Notes: a model not told the origin generated them from the letters alone. A DNA stretch of 36,286 nt from Sulfurovaceae bacterium (GCA_037383745.1 JARROQ010000026.1:1-36286); one strand, 5' to 3'; shown: positions 6,431-36,191, counted from the first letter of the stretch. Numbers and translations are program-made.

Positions 6431-6506
6431 GATCGCGTAGCTCAGTTGGTAGAGCACTACCTTGACATGGTAGGGGTCGTTGGTTCGAGTCCAATCGTGA
6501 TCACCA
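6431..6506 (+). tRNA. tRNA-Val (anticodon GAC)
   Basis: Cloverleaf folds by hand. Acceptor GATCGCG/CGTGATC, D-arm AGCTCAGTTGGTAGAGC, anticodon loop TTGACAT, T-arm GGTTCGAGTCC, encoded CCA. Confidence 0.85.
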
Positions 6507-12841: not shown

Positions 12842-12916
12842 GCGGGCGTAGCTCAGGGGTAGAGCATAACCTTGCCAAGGTTAGGGTCGAGGGTTCGAAT
12901 CCCTTCGCCCGCTCCA
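12842..12916 (+). tRNA. tRNA-Gly (anticodon GCC)
   Basis: GCGGGCG acceptor, anticodon loop TTGCCAA, T-arm GGTTCGAATCC, CCA encoded. Confidence 0.85.
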
Positions 12917-12958
12917 TAAAATATTTTCTATAAACACAAACAATTTGGTTTTATTTAT

Positions 12959-13045
12959 GCCCGGGTGGTGGAATGGTAGACACAGGGGACTTAAAATCCC
13001 CCGGACATTGCGTCCGTGCCGGTTCAAGTCCGGCTCCGGGCACCA
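12959..13045 (+). tRNA. tRNA-Leu (anticodon TAA)
   Basis: GCCCGGG acceptor, anticodon loop CTTAAAA, long variable arm, T-arm GGTTCAAGTCC, CCA. Confidence 0.85.
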
Positions 13046-13060
13046 CCGTTGTTTGGATAT

Positions 13061-13134
13061 GGTGCCATCGCCAAGCGGTAAGGCCGCAGCCTGCAAAGCT
13101 GCTATCCCCGGTTCAAATCCGGGTGGCACCTCCA
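13061..13134 (+). tRNA. tRNA-Cys (anticodon GCA)
   Basis: GGTGCCA/TGGCACC acceptor, anticodon loop CTGCAAA, T-arm GGTTCAAATCC, CCA. Confidence 0.85.
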
Positions 13135-13189
13135 TTATCAATGTTTTTTAATCTTATTTTGATAAGATTCTACTTCTATCGGGAGATGT

Positions 13190-13277
13190 CAGAGTGGTCG
13201 AATGTGCCGGTCTTGAAAACCGGTGAGGGTAACACCTCCGGGGGTTCGAATCCCCCTCTCCCGGCCAGCATTTTCGC
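13190..13277 (+). tRNA. tRNA-Ser (anticodon TGA)
   Basis: Anticodon loop CTTGAAA, long variable arm, T-arm GGTTCGAATCC, CCA. Confidence 0.8.
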
Positions 13278-16978: not shown

Positions 16979-17138
16979 TGTTTTCCTTGTTTATATTTGT
17001 TTTATTGTTTATAGGTTGCATGTTTTGTCTACGGTTCTGTGTAAAATGTTTCATTTTTTACTCCTTGTTTTTTGTTTGAAAAATGGTACAATATTTCAAT
17101 GACGTATTTTGTCCGATAGAAAAAAGGGGATATTTCTG

Positions 17139-17786
17139 ATGAAAAAACTTTTAATATATTTATTATTCTTTACTTTAAATTTGCATGCAAATATATTTGA
17201 TACTTATGCGGGTGAGTATCTTAATGATTTAGGTGCTAAATATCAAAAGTCCAAGGATTATACTAAGGCGGAAACTTTTTTTAAATTAGCTTGTGAAAAG
17301 AACTTTTATAGAGCATGTTCTAATCTTGGATATCTGTATCAGAATGGTTTTGGTGTTAAAAAAGATAAATTAAAAGCATTTACATTATATGAAAAAGCAT
17401 GTAATGGGGAGAATGCAATTGGATGTTTTAATCTTGGTACACTGTATCAATATGGAGAGGGAATATCGTTAGATTACAATAAGTCTAAAGAGTTTTATAA
17501 TTTTGCATGTAAAAAAGGTATAGATAGAGCATGTACACATTTGGCTATACAATATGATTTTGGACAAGGTGTGAGTAAAGACACAAATAGAGCACTTAAA
17601 CTCTATAAAGCTTCTTGTGATCATAATGATGAATATGCTTGTTACATATTAGGATATCTTTATCTAAAGGGAGAAGGTGTAATAAAAGATAAAAATCATG
17701 CGAAGTTATTGTACCAAAAAGCCTGTCGTTTGAAATCTGAAGGTGCTTGTAAGGAGTTAAATGAAATTTGGAGTCAAGATAAATGA
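17139..17786 (+). CDS. Secreted Sel1-repeat (Hcp-like) protein
   Basis: Signal peptide MKKLLIYLLFFTLNLHA, then four or more Sel1 units (ACSNLGYLYQNGFGVKKD...). RBS AAAAGGGGA. The ORF-track start at 17109 is probably too early. Confidence 0.75.
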   Translation: MKKLLIYLLFFTLNLHANIFDTYAGEYLNDLGAKYQKSKDYTKAETFFKLACEKNFYRACSNLGYLYQNGFGVKKDKLKAFTLYEKACNGENAIGCFNLGTLYQYGEGISLDYNKSKEFYNFACKKGIDRACTHLAIQYDFGQGVSKDTNRALKLYKASCDHNDEYACYILGYLYLKGEGVIKDKNHAKLLYQKACRLKSEGACKELNEIWSQDK

Positions 17787-18511
17787 GCCAAAAATCCAGC
17801 CTATACCGAACTATCGAAATCCTAAAAGAGCTAAATGCCGGTAAAAAACTTTGTGTTACCAACCTAGCTACAGCCTATGAAGTAAGCGATCGAACGATTC
17901 GCCGTGATTTTGAGCTAATCAAAGAACTCTTTGGGGACTTTATGAGTAAAGAAGGTGAGTGTTATCAGGCATATAAAAAAGTGCTACTCGAAGAGGTTTT
18001 AAATGCTACAGATTTGATGACACTAGCAAACATTGTCAACCTTTTTGGAATCATTCAAAAAGAGTCACTTATCTCTGAAAAAACTCAAGCACTTATTGAA
18101 CAATCAATGAGCGTCTATGATTTCAAATCTCGCCCGTTTGAAAACGTAAAAGATAGAGAAATACTTAAAAAGCTTGAGCATAGCATTAAATTTAAAAAAG
18201 AAATTAAAATACGCTATCGTACAGAAAGAGCCATTACTCAAGATCGCTTCCAACCCTATAAAATTCTTTTTCTCAATGAAAACTTCTACCTCGTTGGTAT
18301 TAATTCCTCAAAAAACACAGTAGAGTATCGTCGTGTCACGATGATAGAAGAGGTAGAATATACCAAAAAAAGTTTTTTCATAGATAAGGAGGTTGAAAAG
18401 TTCTTTGCGAACTTACAGACTCCTTGGGCTAGTTATGGGAGAAGAGAGATGCTTGTGCGGTTGCGCGCAGAGGTAAGCATACGCCGTTACTTTATGAAAA
18501 ACAGAAGATGA
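17783..18511 (+). CDS. WYL-domain transcriptional regulator (HTH + WYL; BrxR/CapW-like architecture)
   Basis: N-terminal HTH LYRTIEILKELNAGKKLCVTNLATAYEVSDRTIRRDFELI. WYL core YRTERAITQDRFQPYKILFLNENFYLVG...VEYRRVTMIEEV. 4-nt overlap with the Sel1 gene. Confidence 0.7.
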   Translation: MSQKSSLYRTIEILKELNAGKKLCVTNLATAYEVSDRTIRRDFELIKELFGDFMSKEGECYQAYKKVLLEEVLNATDLMTLANIVNLFGIIQKESLISEKTQALIEQSMSVYDFKSRPFENVKDREILKKLEHSIKFKKEIKIRYRTERAITQDRFQPYKILFLNENFYLVGINSSKNTVEYRRVTMIEEVEYTKKSFFIDKEVEKFFANLQTPWASYGRREMLVRLRAEVSIRRYFMKNRR

Positions 18512-21413: not shown

Positions 21414-22646
21414 TTAAAAGATAAAGTAGTAAAATTTTATTTCTCTATGCAGATACGCCATTGAGATTAATAGTAGCAATGCTGTAAAAAAGATGTTGTT
21501 TTTGTTTGGAGTCATATTTGTCTGCTCTAAAAAAACTCTTGTGATATTTAAGAAGTTAAAGGTAATCAGCCATGCTAGTATGATGTTTATCTTGAAGCCA
21601 ATTTTTTTCCATACATCTACTATCACGAGTGCCATACCATGCAGCAATCCCCAGATAACAAATGTCCACCCTGCACCATGCCAGATGCCACTGATAAGAA
21701 ATGTCAACAGGATGTTTACATGCAATGTAATTTTTCTTTTTTTCAAAGGTATGGAGATATAGTCTCTCAAGAAATGCGAAAGCGTGATATGCCAGCGTTG
21801 CCAAAACTCTTGTATGTTTAAGGCCCTATAGGGTGATCTGAAATTAACGGGAAGTTTGATATTAAAAAGTAATGCTATGCCGATTGCCATGTCGGTATAG
21901 CCGCTAAAGTCAAAATAGAGCTGAAATCCAAATGAGAGGCTCGCTACCCAAGCCTCTATAAGATTAAGATCATAAGGACTACCAAAGCCATAATTGGACC
22001 ACTGTGCAAAAGTGTCTGCAACGACTACTTTTTTAAAGAGACCTATAGCAAAGATGAAGATACCTTTGGCGATATTTTCATAATTTAAGCTTTTACTATC
22101 GCGTGAAGCAAATTGTGGCATCATCTGTTTATGGTGGACGATTGGTCCCGCGATAAGTTGCGGGAAAAATGTCACAAAAAGCGCATAGTTTATAAAGTTG
22201 TTTTCTTTAACACGACCCGAATAACTATCGCTCAGATAGGCGATTTGTTGAAATGTGAAAAAAGAGATAGCAAGTGGCAATGCGATATGCATCAATGAGA
22301 AGTTTGTATCAAGCAAGAGATTAGTATTTGTGATAAAAAAATCATAATATTTAAAGTATCCTAACAGTGACACATTGACAACGAGCCCAAAAATCAAAAG
22401 CGGTTTTTTCTTTATAAACGTTTCTGTTGCATTTTTTGCTATCTTAAGACCGACAGTATAATTGAAAAGCATAGAAAAGAGTATGAGTGGCAGATAAATG
22501 ATGTTCCACCAACTATAAAAGAAGAGAGATGAAAAAAGTAAAAATAGCTTACTGAGTGACGAAAACCCTTTATGGTTTAGATAAAAATAAAAGAGAAAAG
22601 CTATGGGTAAAAAGAGAAAAATAAATATATAGGAGTTAAAGAGCAA
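21414..22646 (-). CDS. MBOAT-family membrane O-acyltransferase (AlgI/DltB/PatA-like)
   Basis: Multi-TM protein with the MBOAT hallmark WQRWHITLSHFLRDYISIPL and conserved His in ISGIWHGAGWTF. Confidence 0.85.
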   Translation of the reverse strand: MLFNSYIFIFLFLPIAFLFYFYLNHKGFSSLSKLFLLFSSLFFYSWWNIIYLPLILFSMLFNYTVGLKIAKNATETFIKKKPLLIFGLVVNVSLLGYFKYYDFFITNTNLLLDTNFSLMHIALPLAISFFTFQQIAYLSDSYSGRVKENNFINYALFVTFFPQLIAGPIVHHKQMMPQFASRDSKSLNYENIAKGIFIFAIGLFKKVVVADTFAQWSNYGFGSPYDLNLIEAWVASLSFGFQLYFDFSGYTDMAIGIALLFNIKLPVNFRSPYRALNIQEFWQRWHITLSHFLRDYISIPLKKRKITLHVNILLTFLISGIWHGAGWTFVIWGLLHGMALVIVDVWKKIGFKINIILAWLITFNFLNITRVFLEQTNMTPNKNNIFFTALLLLISMAYLHREIKFYYFIF

Positions 22647-28308: not shown

Positions 28309-29161
28309 TCTTATATGTTGTCCCCTTATGAGTATCCATAGTCATCTTGGCATCTAACTGTGAGACGGTCATCTCTACTAGATTGGCTCCAAACCCTTTG
28401 GGTGTATTTGTGATATCAAAACCTTTTCCATCGTCCTTGTAAGAAAAGATCAATTTGTTATTGAGCGTTTCAAGCCCTAGAGCTATAGTCCCGCCTTTGC
28501 CGTTAAATGCATATTTGATAGAGTTAATCATCAATTCATTGATCATAATACCAAATTGAATCATACTTTCAATGGGAAGTTTCAAAGGAATCATCTCAAT
28601 CTCAACTTTTATGTTTTCTGTACCTTTATTAGTCTGCAAAATATAATCTGTCAGTTTCAAAACATAGGCGCTAAAGTCAATATCCGCCAAGTTATCTTGC
28701 ACATATAGCATCTCATGTGCCATTGCTATAGACTCTAGGCGTAACTTGTTTTGATCTATTAGCCTATGCACTTCAGGAGAGTGACTCTCTAATTTTTGAA
28801 GTCCGAGGATTGATGCTACAAGGTTGAGGTTGTTTTTTACGCGATGATGTATCTCTTTGAGTAAAAATGTTTTTTGCCTATTTGCATCTTCGAGCTCTAC
28901 ATAAGTGCGCTCGATGGCTACATGGTAAAAGGTGCCAAATGCGAGGACAAATAAGAGTGCGATGATATAGGCACTCATATTTTGAGCACTATAGAGCAAA
29001 GCATGCGTCTCATGAGTGCTGTATCCGTAGCCAAATATGATAGCCAAAATGAAAAAATAGATCCCCATATGAATCATCATCTTTCGAGTTGAGAGCAAGA
29101 TGAAACCTACCATGGGCAAGAGAAGTGTAAAGATGATACTGATATTAAAATGGTTATGCAC
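28268..29161 (-). CDS. Sensor histidine kinase (HisKA_2-type H-box)
   Basis: Two N-terminal TM segments. H-box EIHHRVKNNLNLVASIL. ATPase region with NELMINSIKYAF and DDGKGF. Confidence 0.8.
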   Translation of the reverse strand: MHNHFNISIIFTLLLPMVGFILLSTRKMMIHMGIYFFILAIIFGYGYSTHETHALLYSAQNMSAYIIALLFVLAFGTFYHVAIERTYVELEDANRQKTFLLKEIHHRVKNNLNLVASILGLQKLESHSPEVHRLIDQNKLRLESIAMAHEMLYVQDNLADIDFSAYVLKLTDYILQTNKGTENIKVEIEMIPLKLPIESMIQFGIMINELMINSIKYAFNGKGGTIALGLETLNNKLIFSYKDDGKGFDITNTPKGFGANLVEMTVSQLDAKMTMDTHKGTTYKIEFTRENNENSHS

Positions 29162-29327
29162 AATGAAGTAATAGCAATATAACTTCCATAGAATCCATAG
29201 AGAAAAATGTCTTTATAGTGTATGTGTTTGATTTTATTAAGCATAAAATATTATAGCATAGTAACGGAACAGATATGCGATATCTGTGTGCTATGCTTTG
29301 ATGCATTGAACTTAAAAAGGATAAAAA

Positions 29328-30027: not shown

Positions 30028-30789
30028 ATGTTAAACGAATTAAAATGTCTTCTTATCAAACCGTCTATGTATCATCATAGCTATTCTCGTATAGATTGCG
30101 ATGATACTGTTTCGGATGAATTTAGCATCCTGTGCTGGAATGTACACAAAAACAATGATACTTTCTCATTTAGTAACTATATCACTGAGTTTTCCAATCG
30201 AAAGCCCGTTGATTTTTATATATTTCAAGAGGCTGATTTTAAACACGATACGGAGCTAAATCTTCCGGATTTACCGTTCAGTGCCGCTGCAAATCTAGAA
30301 AAAAGCTCTACATTTTACGGCGTTTTGACGGCAACAAGATGCAAAACAATGTATAGCGAATCTTTCCTTTCGCATGGCAAAGAGTTGATATTTGGTCCTC
30401 GCAAGAGTCTGCTTTTGACAAGACACTCTTTTAAGGACGGCTCCCCTTTGTTGATCTTAAATCTTCATGCTATCAATCTAAGAGAAAATAGACACTACTA
30501 TAAAGAGATAGATAGGATCATTAAGATCATCGATGATTATGATGGGGCGATGATCATCGCAGGGGATTTTAACTCGTGGAATAAAAATAGGATGAAGTTT
30601 CTGCACACAAAGATGAAAGAGCTCCATTTTACGCATGTCCCGTTTTCAAAAAGCGATAAGGTCAAGTCTTTTATGAAAAATCATTTGGATTTTATCTTCT
30701 ATAGAGGAGTTGAACTTCTCGAGTACAGTATAGAGAGAAATCACAAACTCTCTGATCATCATCCTCTATTTGCTAAGTTCAAGCGTTGA
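30028..30789 (+). CDS. Endonuclease/exonuclease/phosphatase (EEP) family protein
   Basis: LCWNVHKNN near the N-terminus. IAGDFNSW and SDHHPL near the C-terminus are EEP catalytic signatures. Confidence 0.7.
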   Translation: MLNELKCLLIKPSMYHHSYSRIDCDDTVSDEFSILCWNVHKNNDTFSFSNYITEFSNRKPVDFYIFQEADFKHDTELNLPDLPFSAAANLEKSSTFYGVLTATRCKTMYSESFLSHGKELIFGPRKSLLLTRHSFKDGSPLLILNLHAINLRENRHYYKEIDRIIKIIDDYDGAMIIAGDFNSWNKNRMKFLHTKMKELHFTHVPFSKSDKVKSFMKNHLDFIFYRGVELLEYSIERNHKLSDHHPLFAKFKR

Positions 30790-30981: not shown

Positions 30982-31845
30982 ATGAATCAAACAGAAGTGA
31001 CTTTTTGGGATGTGGAACATGGCAATGCTGCACATATTAAGACACCCAATGGTAGACATATAGTAATTGATCTTGGTATTGGTTCTTATGAGTCCGGGCG
31101 AGAGTTTAGTCCTCTATTGCATCTAAAAAATAACGGCATAGATCAATTGGATTGTGTAGTTATAACACATCCTCATTTGGATCACATTGATGATATATTA
31201 AATTTTGATGTTTTAAGCCCAAAAGTTTTATTGAGATCAACACATTTAAGCAAAGAAGAAATACTTGGTGAAGTTAGGGCCCAAGATAGAGAAAAATTCG
31301 ATAAATATTTTGAAATTGACAGTCGATACAATAGCCCAATAAGTAATACGGTCAACGATCTAAGTTTATCTGAGTATTGGGGTGAATTAAAGATTAAAAC
31401 TTTTGTATCAGATGCCTGTGCTCACTCTAATATCAATAATCATAGCATTATTGTTGTAATTGAATATGTAGGTATAAAGGTTGTATTTACTGGGGATAAT
31501 GAAACTTGCTCATATAATGAACTTTTAGCACTTCCAGAGTTTAAAGATACTGTGAAAAAAGCAGATATTCTGTTGGCAGCTCATCATGGAAGAGAGTCTG
31601 GATATCATAATGACTTTGTTTCTTTAGTAAATCCTAGAGTGACAGTTGTATCAGACGGTAGATTTGGTGATACAAGTGCTACCTCGAGATATTGGTTTAA
31701 AAGTAGAGGTTGGGATGTATATAAAAGCGATGGGAGTAGTAGTAAAAGGTATGTTTTAACTACTCGGCAAGATGGTGAGGTGGTAGCACGTTTTGGTTAT
31801 CAAAATAATACTACCGAAACATTTTTAAATATAAAAATTAACTAG
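30982..31845 (+). CDS. Metallo-beta-lactamase-fold protein, ComEC-type MBL domain (predicted nuclease/hydrolase), MBL-1
   Basis: VITHPHLDHID (HxHxDH). C-terminal LLAAHHGRESGYHNDFVSLVNPRVTVVSDGRFG...GWDVYKSDGSS mirrors the ComEC C-terminal MBL segment (HHGS...v.P..aviS.G...). Confidence 0.65.
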   Translation: MNQTEVTFWDVEHGNAAHIKTPNGRHIVIDLGIGSYESGREFSPLLHLKNNGIDQLDCVVITHPHLDHIDDILNFDVLSPKVLLRSTHLSKEEILGEVRAQDREKFDKYFEIDSRYNSPISNTVNDLSLSEYWGELKIKTFVSDACAHSNINNHSIIVVIEYVGIKVVFTGDNETCSYNELLALPEFKDTVKKADILLAAHHGRESGYHNDFVSLVNPRVTVVSDGRFGDTSATSRYWFKSRGWDVYKSDGSSSKRYVLTTRQDGEVVARFGYQNNTTETFLNIKIN

Positions 31846-31854
31846 GAGGACATC

Positions 31855-32349
31855 ATGAGCGAATTAATAAATAAAATATCGTCATATAATTTTTTTAACT
31901 ATTTGTTGCCAGGGGTTATATATGTAGTATTGATAGAAAATACGACAACATATAAAATATTACAAGAAAATATGATTGTAAATGCGTTTTTAGTGTATTT
32001 TATAGGCTTAGTGATAAGCCGTGTTGGTTCGCTTTTGATAGAACATTTATTGCAAAAGATTGCTCCGCATGAAGAGTATAAAGACTTTATTAGCGCCTGT
32101 CAGCAGGATTCTAAAATAGAAATGCTTTCTGAAGTAAATAATATGTATAGAACTTTTATATCATTATTTATAGTTTTATTTTGTTCTGAAATATATATAG
32201 TAATTACATCTTGTTTTTCTCTAAGTGTAAAAACCAATATCAATATAGTGGCATGCATATTAATACTTTTATTTATTCTTTCATATAGAAAGCAAACCAT
32301 ATACATAACAAAAAGAATTAAGTTGGTAAACAAAAAGGACTCAAAATGA
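31855..32349 (+). CDS. Small 4-TM membrane protein, uncharacterised
   Basis: 164 aa, four hydrophobic helices, extremely AT-rich. Start 10 nt after MBL-1. Its stop overlaps the MBL-2 ATG (ATGA). Confidence 0.5.
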   Translation: MSELINKISSYNFFNYLLPGVIYVVLIENTTTYKILQENMIVNAFLVYFIGLVISRVGSLLIEHLLQKIAPHEEYKDFISACQQDSKIEMLSEVNNMYRTFISLFIVLFCSEIYIVITSCFSLSVKTNINIVACILILLFILSYRKQTIYITKRIKLVNKKDSK

Positions 32350-33497
32350 GTAAAAATGCAAAAATAATATTTTACCCTGTAGATAATGGCAATATGATTC
32401 TTCTTAAATTGGAAGATAAAACAACTATATTAGTAGATATTTATGTTCGAAAAAAAGCATCAGATGAGAATGAAAAAGATTTTTATGATGTCATGTCACA
32501 TCTCAAGGAGAATTTGGAAAAAGATAATCAAGATAGATATTGTATTGATGTATTTCTATTAACTCATTTAGATGAAGATCATATACTAGGTTTGCAAGAT
32601 AATTTTTATTTGGGCGATATAAATCAATATAATGATGAGAATAAAGAAAAAATTATTATTAAAGAGACATGGAGTTCTGAAAGGTTCTGGAAAAGAGAAA
32701 CAGAATCAATAACATTATCAGATGATGCAAAAGCTTACAATAGGGAAATGAGACGAAGAGCCAATCTTCATAAAGATAATGGGGAGCAAATTCAAGAAGA
32801 GGGCAATAGAGCTATTATTATAGGGGATGATGAAGATGACGAAGGATATAACAATATTATTCACAAAGTTGGTCAAAGCACATCAAAAGTCAACAATCAG
32901 ACAAAGAGTAATTTTAGAATAAATATTTTGGGACCATTGGAGCAACAAGAGGGTGAAGAAAAAGAAAGTTTTGATGAAAAGAACAGAGGTAGTGTGATTC
33001 TTCAAATTGAAATAACAGTTGGAAGTTATACAAATAAAATTTTATTGACTGGTGATGCAGAAGTTAATGTATGGGAATACATGAGGAAAAAATACAATAA
33101 TACTCTATTGGAGTATGATATTTTATGTGTGCCTCATCACTGTTCAATGGGAAGTCTTGGAAGAAAAAACGATGAAGATAAATATGATATATCAGATGAT
33201 GCTTTAGATGCTTTATCACAAGCGAAAGATGGTGCCGTCATTATTTCTAGTAGTAAGGAAATTTTAGATGATGACAATAATCCTCCCCATTATGATGCAA
33301 AACAAGAGTACTTGAAAATTGTAAGTAGTGATGATGATTTTATTTGTACAGAAGAATATCCCGATAGCGAAAATGTTGAACCTATTGTAATTGAATTTAC
33401 ATCAGGTGGTCCACAATTAAAATCAGGAACATCTGTAAGTAAAATTGGCACTGCTTCGGGAGCTTCATCCCAAGCTATATATCCACATGGAAGATAA
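32346..33497 (+). CDS. Metallo-beta-lactamase-fold protein, ComEC-type, with acidic insert and Gly/Ser/Ala-rich C-terminal tail, MBL-2
   Basis: FLLTHLDEDHILG, LLTGDAEVN, CVPHHCSMGSLGR...GAVIISSS. Tail ...SGGPQLKSGTSVSKIGTASGASSQAIYPHGR is encoded in the left arm of a 63-bp inverted repeat. Confidence 0.55.
   Translation: MSKNAKIIFYPVDNGNMILLKLEDKTTILVDIYVRKKASDENEKDFYDVMSHLKENLEKDNQDRYCIDVFLLTHLDEDHILGLQDNFYLGDINQYNDENKEKIIIKETWSSERFWKRETESITLSDDAKAYNREMRRRANLHKDNGEQIQEEGNRAIIIGDDEDDEGYNNIIHKVGQSTSKVNNQTKSNFRINILGPLEQQEGEEKESFDEKNRGSVILQIEITVGSYTNKILLTGDAEVNVWEYMRKKYNNTLLEYDILCVPHHCSMGSLGRKNDEDKYDISDDALDALSQAKDGAVIISSSKEILDDDNNPPHYDAKQEYLKIVSSDDDFICTEEYPDSENVEPIVIEFTSGGPQLKSGTSVSKIGTASGASSQAIYPHGR
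33425..33487. repeat. Left arm of a perfect 63-bp inverted repeat (codes the MBL-2 C-terminal tail)
   Basis: The exact reverse complement occurs at 33599-33661. 111-bp spacer between the arms. Confidence 0.9.
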
Positions 33498-33598
33498 AGA
33501 ATACCTTATTTCATTAGCAAGGAAATTTGCCAATGAACATAAAGCTGTAAATAGAATATATGACAACTACACAAATGATAAAGGTTTACTTTGTTTTG

Positions 33599-33661
33599 AT
33601 GTGGATATATAGCTTGGGATGAAGCTCCCGAAGCAGTGCCAATTTTACTTACAGATGTTCC
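33599..33661. repeat. Right arm of the perfect 63-bp inverted repeat (contains the E2-like start codon)
   Basis: Reverse complement of 33425-33487 verified base by base. Identity breaks on both flanks. Confidence 0.9.
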
Positions 33662-34169
33662 AGAAAAAGTTGTTCTTGAATTTCCAAATGAGTTCCCTTT
33701 TAAATCACCCCAAGTATATTTAAGAGATGACTTTAATAGAAACTTTGCGCATATAAACCCTATAGCTGACAAATTTAATCCATGTATTTTTGAGGGTTCT
33801 TTAAATGAACTGATACAACAACCTTTGTGGATGGATGGCATACTAGACCAATTGGTTGATTGGCTTGAAACTTCTGCGTCTGATTCTATGATCAATCCTA
33901 ATCAGGGCTGGGAGCCTATGCGTGTGGATGACAACAATGGAATTATCATATATGACAGAGCGTATATAATTCAAGAGCATCTTACAAATAATAAATTTGC
34001 CTTTAAAATAATGTATAAAAAGAAAACGGATTTCTTCATCAGTAGAATTTTTACAAATGAAGAAGTTGTAATAGATACTTTTGATAGGAGTTATATATTT
34101 TGTTTTTCTTCAGCAAATGTATCAAATGAGTATTTGCCTAATAATGTAAAAAACTTTACAGATTTTTAA
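33636..34169 (+). CDS. Minimal E2-like (UBC-fold) ubiquitin-conjugating-enzyme homolog
   Basis: PFKSPQVYLRDDFNRNFAHINPIADKFNPCIFEG parallels the UBC PF.PP.v.F...HPN...G.IC core with a candidate catalytic Cys. GTG start lies inside the IR right arm. Confidence 0.5.
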   Translation: MPILLTDVPEKVVLEFPNEFPFKSPQVYLRDDFNRNFAHINPIADKFNPCIFEGSLNELIQQPLWMDGILDQLVDWLETSASDSMINPNQGWEPMRVDDNNGIIIYDRAYIIQEHLTNNKFAFKIMYKKKTDFFISRIFTNEEVVIDTFDRSYIFCFSSANVSNEYLPNNVKNFTDF

Positions 34170-34344
34170 CACTAGTTCAGATATTGAAATATTACATTTT
34201 ACTATTGAGTTAAAACGACATAAAAAGAAAGAACATGAAGCTCATCAAGACTCAGAGGTAAAGATCTTATCGGGTTTAAATTTTGCAAATACAGAAATAT
34301 TACAACAATTTTCAGGAGCCAAAAACACTATTAAGGAAACCCAA

Positions 34345-34881
34345 ATGATTACACAAATAGGATGTGGATCATTGGGTTCAAAAATAGCTATGCATTTAGC
34401 TAGAAATGGAAACGATAATTTTATTCTAGTAGATAATAAATATTTTGTACCAAACAACAATGCTAGACATGCTTTATTTTCATCATCATCTATTTTTAGA
34501 AAAGTAGAAATTTTACAAAAAGCAATGTTTGAGCTAGGCTTAAAAAATATTCAAATAGAAAATAAAAGCATTTTTGATGTTACTAATATAGGCACATCAA
34601 GTGAAGATATCATCATGGATTCGACTGCAAGTATGTCAGTTAATAATTTTTTAACAAAACAAGCGTTTAGTGGAAGATTAATTCATACTTCTTTGTACCA
34701 TAATGGAACAATTGCGTTTATAGGGATTGAAGGGAAAGATAGAAAAGTTAAAATAATTGATATGATTGCTTACATGTACCACTTATGTACAGAGGATAAA
34801 AAAATAGCAAAAAGATTGAACATTTTGAGCCATTGGAAACTAGAACCATCAAAGGAGTTCAGGATGAAAACTGGGAAATAA
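34345..34881 (+). CDS. E1-like (ThiF/MoeB-family) adenylyltransferase, minimal 178 aa
   Basis: IGCGSLGSKIAMHLARNG Rossmann GxGxxG, LVDNKYFVPNNNARH (D...N.R), IIMDSTAS (Mg-binding Asp). RBS AAGGA. Confidence 0.6.
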   Translation: MITQIGCGSLGSKIAMHLARNGNDNFILVDNKYFVPNNNARHALFSSSSIFRKVEILQKAMFELGLKNIQIENKSIFDVTNIGTSSEDIIMDSTASMSVNNFLTKQAFSGRLIHTSLYHNGTIAFIGIEGKDRKVKIIDMIAYMYHLCTEDKKIAKRLNILSHWKLEPSKEFRMKTGK

Positions 34882-35264
34882 GAATATTTCAGCATGTATT
34901 AGAATCTATTAAAGAAGAGTCTTTAAAGTGGAATGATTTAGAAACAGGTGGGATTTTAATTGGCCACATTTCCATACCAACTCAAACAATTATCATCACT
35001 GGACAACTAGAAGCACCAGAAGATAGTGAAAGAGGAAAAACAAAATTTTCTTCAGGTATTAAAGGATTAAGTCAAAAAATTCAAGAGATTGAACATTCCT
35101 CAGCTATGATGATTACTCAATTAGGAACTTGGCATAGTCATCCAAATAGCTCACCTAGTCCATCATATATAGATTTAAATAGTAAAAAAGAAATGTATAA
35201 AGACAGAAATGAAATGCCTACAGTTTGTTTAATTTGGTCTCATAGTGGATTTACTGTTTATTAA
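34833..35264 (+). CDS. JAB/MPN (JAMM) metalloprotease-type deubiquitinase-like protein
   Basis: ETGGILIG (Glu) and WHSHPNSSPSPSYID, an exact HxHx7Sx2D JAMM motif. TTG start. 49-nt overlap with the E1 gene in another frame. Confidence 0.75.
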   Translation: METRTIKGVQDENWEIRIFQHVLESIKEESLKWNDLETGGILIGHISIPTQTIIITGQLEAPEDSERGKTKFSSGIKGLSQKIQEIEHSSAMMITQLGTWHSHPNSSPSPSYIDLNSKKEMYKDRNEMPTVCLIWSHSGFTVY

Positions 35265-35399
35265 ATGCATGAAGCAGGTATTGAGTTTCCATCTTTAAAC
35301 CTTTAGCAATAAAAAAAGAAGTAAGTGATAGACCAAATCACCTCTAAGTTTGAAACTCTTTTTGCGTTATAATAATTAAAAGATTTTGGGATACTACGA

Positions 35400-36191
35400 A
35401 TGAATAAACCAAAAAAAGCAAGAGAGTATAATCTACCAACGCAAACAAAAAGAGATACGCTTTTTATCAAGCCTTTAAGGCTCATAAAAGAGTACCTGCC
35501 TTTGATAGTTTTAGTGCCTGTTGTTATAGGCGGCTTATGGCAGATCATCGCACTTGCGAGCATGTCGATAGCCTACATAAGGTTTTTCTCTGTTACGCAA
35601 TTGATCGCAGATGGGCTTTTAGCAATCTTAGTCATTTTGCCTTGGCTTGTTTGCATCTATATATACAATATTTTTAGTGAAATTTTTTATATGACACTTA
35701 AGGAGTTAAGGGAATCATTTCCAAAAAAGAAATATTATTTAACAAAAGGATTTGTGGCACTAAGCTATACATTGATTATAGCCGTTAGTGTTTATTTCTT
35801 ATTGTCCTTTGTTTTTAAAGTCAATAATGAATTTATCAAATACTATGGCACTATCATCTTCACATTTATAATCATTTTTTTGTTAGATATTATTCTATTT
35901 AATGGTGGGTATGTTCAAGCTGTAGATAAGGTATATGAAAATAAATTTTTTAAGGGGATATTGACTGCTATCTTATCGATACTTTTTTTAGTGATTCTTC
36001 CAATGTTCTTTGACTTCAAATTTTACATACCTCGCAATTTGGAAAATCTAGATAATTTAGCGAAGTATGATCCGGATAAAAATGCGAAGTTACGATACTT
36101 TAACGACAAATACATCTTTTTAGAGCATAAAATAGAGGATAATAGCACCACCATTCAAGTCGTGCCGTTTGAGGAGCTGTTCGATAAGTAA
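35400..36191 (+). CDS. Hypothetical polytopic membrane protein
   Basis: 263 aa, several hydrophobic helices, no recognised motif. Confidence 0.4.
   Translation: MNKPKKAREYNLPTQTKRDTLFIKPLRLIKEYLPLIVLVPVVIGGLWQIIALASMSIAYIRFFSVTQLIADGLLAILVILPWLVCIYIYNIFSEIFYMTLKELRESFPKKKYYLTKGFVALSYTLIIAVSVYFLLSFVFKVNNEFIKYYGTIIFTFIIIFLLDIILFNGGYVQAVDKVYENKFFKGILTAILSILFLVILPMFFDFKFYIPRNLENLDNLAKYDPDKNAKLRYFNDKYIFLEHKIEDNSTTIQVVPFEELFDK

Follow-up and report, generated by a model that had tools for sequence, protein, structure and literature searches.

Positions 30982-35264 of a 36,286-nt stretch of DNA from a Sulfurovaceae bacterium, called the window below, carry genes for two metallo-β-lactamase (MBL) proteins, a small transmembrane (TM) protein, and enzymes related to the E2, E1, and JAB components of ubiquitin-type conjugation (Table 1). 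With a probability of roughly 0.8, the segment 31855-35264 holds one copy of a mobile anti-phage cassette, made up of three genes and belonging to the 6A-MBL family, with the gene for the first MBL protein, MBL-1, lying just 5′ of it. As judged by comparison with related loci, the cassette proper consists of the genes for the membrane protein TM164, for the second MBL protein, MBL-2, and for an E2-E1-JAB fusion, which is disrupted in the window, and MBL-1 is an add-on.

An earlier note, made from the sequence of the window alone, had described the block as six tightly packed, co-oriented genes situated where the window is richest in A+T. The open reading frame (ORF) map agrees, with six closely spaced ORFs all on the + strand, and the G+C fraction of the block, 0.28-0.33, is the minimum of the window, compared with about 0.37 elsewhere. 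The gap between MBL-1 and TM164 is 9 nt, the stop codon of TM164 and the start codon of MBL-2 overlap as ATGA, as the note had also reported, and the ATG of the fusion overlaps the stop codon of MBL-2 by 11 nt. The note's broader proposal, a conflict system linked to ubiquitin-like conjugation with a cargo other than that of CBASS (anti-phage signalling systems built on cyclic oligonucleotides), is supported, with an MBL protein occupying the place of the cGAS/DncV-like nucleotidyltransferase (CD-NTase). Its two further contentions, that E2, E1, and JAB are three separate minimal genes and that the combination belongs to none of the named systems, did not hold.

Table 1. Positions (window coordinates), strand, and main characteristics of the genes, gene fragments, and lesions in the block.
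Feature	Position	Strand	Characteristics
MBL-1	30982-31845	+	287 aa; HPHLDH, TGD, HHG; Pfam Lactamase_B 1.6e-9; PADLOC PDC-M48B 4.2e-123
TM164	31855-32349	+	164 aa; 3-4 hydrophobic helices (hydropathy scan); PADLOC PDC-M48A 1.4e-58
MBL-2	32346-33497	+	383 aa; weak Pfam Lactamase_B; in PADLOC, closest to the MBL models of Lamassu, DRT, and Avs1
Disrupted E2-E1-JAB fusion gene	33487-35264	+	706 aa in intact form
Apparent E2 N-terminal helix fragment	33487-33612	+	short frame-1 ORF from ATG 33487, closed by a stop codon
'E2' core ORF	33636-34169	+	Prok-E2_A 3e-19, only profile positions 55-153 of 163
'E1' ORF	34345-34881	+	ThiF 2e-7, only profile positions 26-86 of 238; CBASS E1-E2 (Cap2) models
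JAB ORF	34833-35264	+	143 aa; Prok-JAB 5e-10; CBASS JAB models 6e-25 (PADLOC)
Lesion 1, inverted patch	33599-33661	+	63-nt perfect reverse complement of 33426-33488
Lesion 2, deletion junction	34165/34166	+	131 nt missing from the E2-E1 linker
Lesion 3, deletion junction	34812/34813	+	200 nt missing from E1 and the E1-JAB linker

The E2, E1, and JAB reading frames

Sequence comparison shows the 'minimal' ORFs for E2, E1, and JAB to be pieces of a single E2-E1-JAB fusion gene of about 706 codons. In a three-frame translation the fragments alternate between two reading frames, in the order 1/0/1/0, and the E2 and E1 pieces match only parts of their profiles. An exact look-up of MBL-2 led to two further contigs, one in the Logan assembly of SRR13768064 (L002) and the other in a sister metagenome-assembled genome (MAG), GCA_037383805.1 (L001). 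Positions 2606-4726 of L002 form one intact ORF of 706 aa with Prok-E2_A, ThiF, and Prok-JAB matches, in the E2-E1-JAB order in one polypeptide, and it begins at an ATG overlapping the stop codon of MBL-2. The three window ORFs align collinearly to it in blocks of 100% identity, and the flanks are 100% identical as well, leaving three lesions as the sole differences (blastn, alignments).

In the first lesion, as a three-way alignment shows, an inverted copy of MBL-2 tail codons stands in place of native E2 sequence of about 73 nt, IKVNLPSSFKKNAQTNKGVKNVE, causing a frameshift and a stop at 33610. A repeat search reported the resulting structure, which had been missed in the earlier note, as an inverted repeat of 87 nt with 87% complementarity, stretching from the MBL-2 tail to where the 'E2' ORF begins. 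The repeat is present in the sister MAG L001 and absent from L002 and from the related loci L008 and L009. The second lesion has lost the invariant residues R269-P270, and the third, besides the E1-JAB linker, the invariant GQGCGS segment of E1, where the presumed E1 Cys lies; microhomology at their junctions is 0 and 2 nt, respectively. The segments deleted by these two lesions are present in five of five relatives, at 77-91% DNA identity. The fragments are annotated as P8Y46_05670, P8Y46_05675, and MEJ2498794.1; an exact-sequence look-up of the 143-aa JAB ORF returned no record, and the last of these entries was reached via its protein cluster.

The catalytic residues expected of the three enzymes are invariant in a 12-sequence alignment of the fusion family. 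These are Cys103 of E2 (NPC), the GCGSLGSK loop, NNARH (R374), D-S-T, and Cys505 (GQGC) of E1, and the complete JAMM motif of JAB (E600, H664, H666, S674, and D677). Among solved structures, the E1 part is nearest to Cap2 (7tsq, 7tsx, and 7to3; 2e-8) and the JAB part to the JAB peptidase 9ild (2e-12). All the motifs quoted in the earlier note were found, namely HPHLDH in MBL-1, the G/S/A-rich tail of MBL-2, PFKSPQVYL...FAHINP...C, GCGSLGS, NNARH, IIMDST, ETGG, and HSHPNSSPSPSYID, and its MBL, E2, ThiF, and JAMM domain calls were borne out by Pfam and PADLOC.

The MBL-2 protein and its C-terminal tail

MBL-2 is predicted to be a DNase with a ComEC-like MBL fold, as suggested by its modelled structure and by the related MBLs of other defence systems. 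Its AlphaFold2 model has a mean per-residue confidence (pLDDT) of 84.7 and a predicted TM-score (pTM) of 0.87, and the top match of this model in the PDB, found with Foldseek, is the MBL nuclease domain of ComEC, 9ic4 (E 2e-12, with a target-normalised TM-score of 0.72). When the PDB was searched with MBL-2 by sequence profile, nothing matched at E ≤ 1, and the fold search alone succeeded. The best PADLOC matches are LmuA (3e-15), RTasMBL (2e-11), and Avs1a (2e-8). HamM and the MBLs of Avs1, Lamassu, and DRT are DNase proenzymes of the ComEC-like type whose activation is post-translational (PMC12799240; 10.1101/2025.09.03.673762). Like MBL-2, they combine a ComEC-like MBL fold with extra insertions.

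Among MBL-2 homologues, H74, D78, H79, D237, H264, and H265 are invariant and represent putative metal ligands. The metal-ligand motifs of ComEC/Rec2 (H..DH, TGD, and HH(C/G)S) are found along with the fold, save for the second His of HxHxDH. In contrast with ComEC/Rec2, MBL-2 is soluble and stand-alone, does not belong to a DNA-uptake channel, and has a core about 95 residues longer, followed by a tail of 22 residues.

This S/A/G-rich tail, ...SGTSVSKIGTASGASSQAIYPHGR, ends in H381-G382-R383, with the Gly codon at 33489-33491. Residues 362-383 are disordered in the model, where the pLDDT of the tail is about 30. The 77 MBL-2 homologues encoded beside a fusion gene all carry the His-Gly pair at or next to their end, 62 of them as the last two residues and 15 with one or two residues following. 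With this conservation and the disorder predicted for the tail, the C-terminus of MBL-2 is very probably the end that is conjugated. MBL-1 has no His-Gly tail and ends in ...FLNIKIN.

Related loci and known systems

The distribution of the family was surveyed by ORF calls and jackhmmer searches on the best 80 loci, and by a species scan with one genome per species. Homologues of the intact fusion with a length of about 700 aa number at least 260, and relatives occur in 144 species-representative genomes from more than a dozen phyla; intact copies with at least 90% protein identity are found in isolates of Aliarcobacter butzleri and Arcobacter cryaerophilus. A homologue of MBL-2 lies directly 5′ of the fusion in 77 of the 80 loci, and in the other three the fusion match begins less than 600 nt from the end of the contig. 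A membrane protein is encoded nearby in 43 of the 80, belonging to the TM164 family or to a second one, TM235, for which there is no PADLOC model, and an extra MBL of the PDC-M48B type in 22. TM164 and TM235 are treated as unrelated families because their hhalign probability is 2%. The DNA shared by the window and its relatives is confined to 31862-35270, that is, TM164, MBL-2, and the fusion, and leaves MBL-1 outside.

The genomic contexts of these loci are typical of defence islands or of mobile elements, such as plasmids and elements resembling integrative and conjugative ones. In CP146528.1, from Arcobacter cryaerophilus, where the TM, MBL, and fusion genes occupy 1381351-1385117, the neighbours are an integrase, an MmeI-like restriction-modification enzyme, a transposase, AIPR, and RelB/YafQ. 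A second locus lies among genes for SLFN-like helicases, a McrA-like HNH nuclease, NUDIX, and MazG, and a third adjoins TraF/TraH. Clinical Acinetobacter plasmids of the pOXA58 type carry a five-gene version composed of TM235, a WYL regulator, an MBL, the fusion, and a second MBL. On plasmid pOXA58_005078 of Acinetobacter baumannii (L090; NZ_CP027245.2, 2024-8372), the genes for the TM protein and the WYL-domain regulator are divergent from that of the MBL, which ends in HG plus two residues, and the fusion of 751 aa is accompanied by a PDC-M48B-type MBL of 356 aa. Since this version shares 86% DNA identity with loci in MAGs of Halomonas and Haliea, it is a mobile cassette. Two of the loci, L063 and L064, assigned to an 'Alphaproteobacteria' MAG and a 'Haliea' MAG of the same project, are 100% identical across 14,136 nt, through either very recent transfer or the binning of one contig twice.

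The combination of an MBL gene with an E2-E1-JAB 'triple module' is described as operon type 6a, usually of two genes (Iyer, Burroughs & Aravind 2006; PMC1779556), and it was later called 6A-MBL. Such a match is what the earlier note had itself listed as speaking against its claim of an unnamed system. Later papers relate 6A-MBL to type II CBASS and present it as a validated anti-phage system of Pseudomonas, citing van den Berg et al. 2024 (PMC11601596), a 2026 review lists '6A-MBL' as an experimentally confirmed defence of P. aeruginosa (PMC13276650), and a 2025 preprint places it among the defences against jumbo phages. The preprint of Ledvina et al. does not mention MBL operons, and none of the PADLOC 2.0 models represents the combination. 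Like 6A-MBL, the cassette has a single E2 (Prok-E2_A)-E1 (ThiF-like)-JAB polypeptide encoded directly after a specialised MBL, and it is sparsely distributed, mobile, and associated with defence islands. It differs in that the fusion ORF of the window is disrupted and that the TM164 and MBL-1 genes accompany the pair.

Type II CBASS offers a parallel for the enzymes themselves, with Cap2-like E2-E1 and Cap3-like JAB components, the latter matching the CBASS-associated JAB models of PADLOC and the former having its E1 closest to Cap2 among solved structures. In both systems the flexible C-terminal tail of a substrate enzyme stands in for a separate ubiquitin-like (Ubl) protein, and the logic is probably the same, with the system's own enzyme being conjugated and JAB acting as antagonist or processor. 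On the other hand, the JAB is here fused to E2-E1, the PADLOC Cap2 models match weakly (1e-23 at best), and an MBL nuclease-like enzyme takes the position of the CD-NTase. As the earlier note had stated, the distinctive CBASS partners are missing: no CD-NTase/SMODS domain was matched by Pfam in any ORF between 17109 and 36191 or by PADLOC in the ORFs tested, and neither of the two found a cyclic-nucleotide effector domain.

Bil and Bub systems share E1, E2, and JAB-type chemistry and a defence context, whereas they encode a separate β-grasp Ubl and separate E1 and E2 proteins. The absence of a Ubl gene from the block, also noted earlier, was borne out, as no Ubl domain was matched by Pfam or PADLOC and no unassigned ORF space is left for one within 30982-35264. 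In Hachiman, Avs1, Lamassu, and DRT, the MBL is paired with a trypsin-like or caspase protease, by which inhibitory loops are cut, whereas here its partner would be an E2-E1-JAB ligase/isopeptidase with a C-terminal Gly tail as substrate. MBL-1 and TM164 correspond to the adjacent B (MBL) and A (TM) genes of the PADLOC candidate PDC-M48, on which a literature search found nothing. PDC-M48 is a two-gene candidate devoid of E2-E1-JAB, whereas the window and its close relatives couple the TM gene with those of MBL-2 and the fusion. The extra MBLs beside other 6A-MBL loci are likewise of the PDC-M48B type according to PADLOC.

Immediately 5′ of MBL-1, the segment 29328-30789 (+) encodes a PAN-domain protein of 213 aa and a protein of 253 aa of the endonuclease/exonuclease/phosphatase (EEP) family, neither of them conserved beside related systems. 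The EEP gene (30028-30789) was rejected as part of the system, being absent from all related loci, and the same applies to the gene downstream of the block (35400-36191, +). The product of the latter, a membrane protein of 263 aa with about five hydrophobic helices and no Pfam or PADLOC match, is seen only on contigs of the same strain. A Sel1-repeat protein followed by a helix-turn-helix WYL regulator is encoded at 17109-18511 (+), some 13 kb 5′ of the system; WYL regulators govern many defence operons. The tRNA genes nearest to the system lie between 6431 and 13267 and comprise a lone tRNA-Val (6431-6506) and a cluster of Gly-GCC, Leu-TAA, Cys-GCA, and Ser-TGA (12842-13267). No tRNA gene or integrase adjoins the system in the window, and there is no integrase beside its tRNA genes.

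Weighing the assignment and a possible mechanism

The architecture of the locus, its conservation, the fold of MBL-2, the invariant catalytic residues, and the His-Gly tail are directly supported here. Several points nevertheless weigh against the assignment. Homology to 6A-MBL is based on shared architecture and literature descriptions, and identity with the validated P. aeruginosa system in sequence and exact gene content is presumptive. MBL-2 does not keep the second His of the canonical HxHxDH motif, its pattern being H-x-[D/H]-x-D-H, and the metal site may consequently be atypical. The conjugation and nuclease steps proposed below are drawn by analogy only. Finally, the inverted patch is common to two MAG assemblies, the window and L001, and its left junction matches at 9 of 10 nt, as in a real polymerase template switch; the fusion gene could thus be truly inactivated in this population.

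If the patch and the deletions were real mutations, for instance through selection against a costly or self-toxic conjugation enzyme, the fusion gene would be dead and TM164, MBL-2, and MBL-1 would be left as a remnant. Besides the shared patch, this possibility draws on the loss of catalytic segments in both assemblies, the E2 Cys region in L001 and the E1 Cys region in both. It nonetheless appears unlikely, and the three lesions are most probably assembly or amplification artefacts, because an intact gene exists on a sister contig of the same strain, as a continuous path in SRR13768064. The sister MAGs are otherwise 100% identical, with 0 SNPs but at least six indel differences in 9 kb, and each has deletions of its own of 50-215 nt that also affect unrelated genes, among them the histidine kinase, EEP, and MBOAT-region genes. 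At the two deletion sites of the window, L001 has nested deletions with different end points, of 54 and 108 nt and in frame, and a further deletion of 136 nt in L001 begins precisely where the inverted patch ends. L001 also has a run of Ns instead of window positions 30508-30577, and another sister contig, L089, lacks 28854-29036. Unrelated genes of the window itself have also suffered, with losses of 213 nt at 21518 and of 166 nt at 29165 and a truncation of the N-terminus of the histidine kinase. Indels of this kind suggest a general problem of assembly quality in this MAG series, and sister contigs, too, terminate within MBL-2 or the fusion. Slippage between direct repeats was rejected as the origin of the deletions, as microhomology at their junctions amounts to only 0-3 nt, a finding that also counts in favour of artefacts.

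It is rather improbable that the block unites two independent neighbours, a PDC-M48 pair (MBL-1 and TM164) next to a two-gene 6A-MBL system (MBL-2 and the fusion), with TM164 having no role in conjugation. Such a division would agree with the definition of PDC-M48 by PADLOC as a two-gene candidate, both models of which match strongly, with the usual two-gene form of type 6a operons (PMC1779556), and with the lack of a TM protein within 6 kb in 37 of the 80 loci. Yet TM164 is found immediately 5′ of MBL-2 in L008, L009, L011, L018, L091, L093, and L095, and the closest relatives consist of TM, MBL, and fusion genes devoid of MBL-1, as in L008, L009, L091, L093, and L095. The same order without MBL-1 extends to loci from Spirochaetia and Ignavibacteriales. 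The ATGA overlap couples TM164 to MBL-2, the DNA shared with relatives starts at TM164 and not at MBL-2, and the unrelated TM235 takes the same position in about 35 other loci. A Desulfobacteraceae MAG locus (L017, 1594-8082) holds both a PDC-M48-type pair, made up of a 259-aa MBL and a TM164-type protein on the minus strand, and an operon of TM235, an MBL ending in HG, and the fusion, and hence both families of membrane proteins occur around one 6A-MBL system.

The reading put forward in the earlier note, an unnamed system of three separate minimal E2, E1, and JAB proteins with two MBL hydrolases and a membrane protein, is very hard to sustain. The ORF map does give three ORFs with the right motifs and PADLOC 2.0 does not cover their combination, but these ORFs are collinear pieces of one ORF, found unbroken in L002 and all relatives, the E1 fragment is devoid of the invariant Cys segment, and the combination has been described since 2006 and named. 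Least credible of all, and rejected, is a function for the inverted repeat as an invertible switch or as a regulatory RNA hairpin coupling the translation of MBL-2 and E2. The repeat is long, nearly perfect, and positioned right at the MBL-2/fusion junction, yet neither the intact sister contig nor relatives at 69-88% identity have it, and its right arm displaces conserved E2 coding sequence and brings in a stop codon.

For the 6A-MBL cassette, a likely mechanism can be proposed by analogy with type II CBASS, as that system is presented in PMC10097602 and in PMC11601596, which cites Ledvina et al. 2023. The JAB domain would trim the residue that follows Gly382 of MBL-2, and the E1 domain would adenylate the exposed Gly carboxylate. 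The tail would next be held in thioester linkage, first by the E1 Cys (GQGC) and afterwards by the E2 Cys (NPC), before its ligation to a target lysine. Ligation may prime or localise the MBL nuclease, with degradation of DNA during infection as the outcome, and JAB may also reverse conjugation and so limit self-damage.

From their recurrent co-location, one may tentatively picture TM164 or TM235 and the second, PDC-M48B-type MBL as working parts of an extended 6A-MBL system, an idea that is more likely to be wrong than right. In such a system, ligation by E2-E1 could join MBL-2, through its His-Gly tail, either to the membrane protein or to the second MBL, yielding a membrane-anchored, ComEC-like nuclease that would destroy phage DNA as it enters; a role of TM164 or MBL-1 in membrane anchoring or as a conjugation target is speculation. 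If true, the extended system would also account for the candidate PDC-M48, which would be the core pair of effectors that gave rise to 6A-MBL.

The locus calls for caution with MAG annotations and with the reading of raw sequence, in which three small ubiquitin-pathway genes appear that are truly fragments of one. The gain in discovery is small, as the association of MBL with E2-E1-JAB has been in the comparative-genomics literature since 2006. What the census provides are handles on the mechanism of 6A-MBL, namely the invariant His-Gly end and the ComEC-like fold of its MBL protein, the recurrent TM protein and second MBL, and the WYL regulator of the plasmid-borne version.

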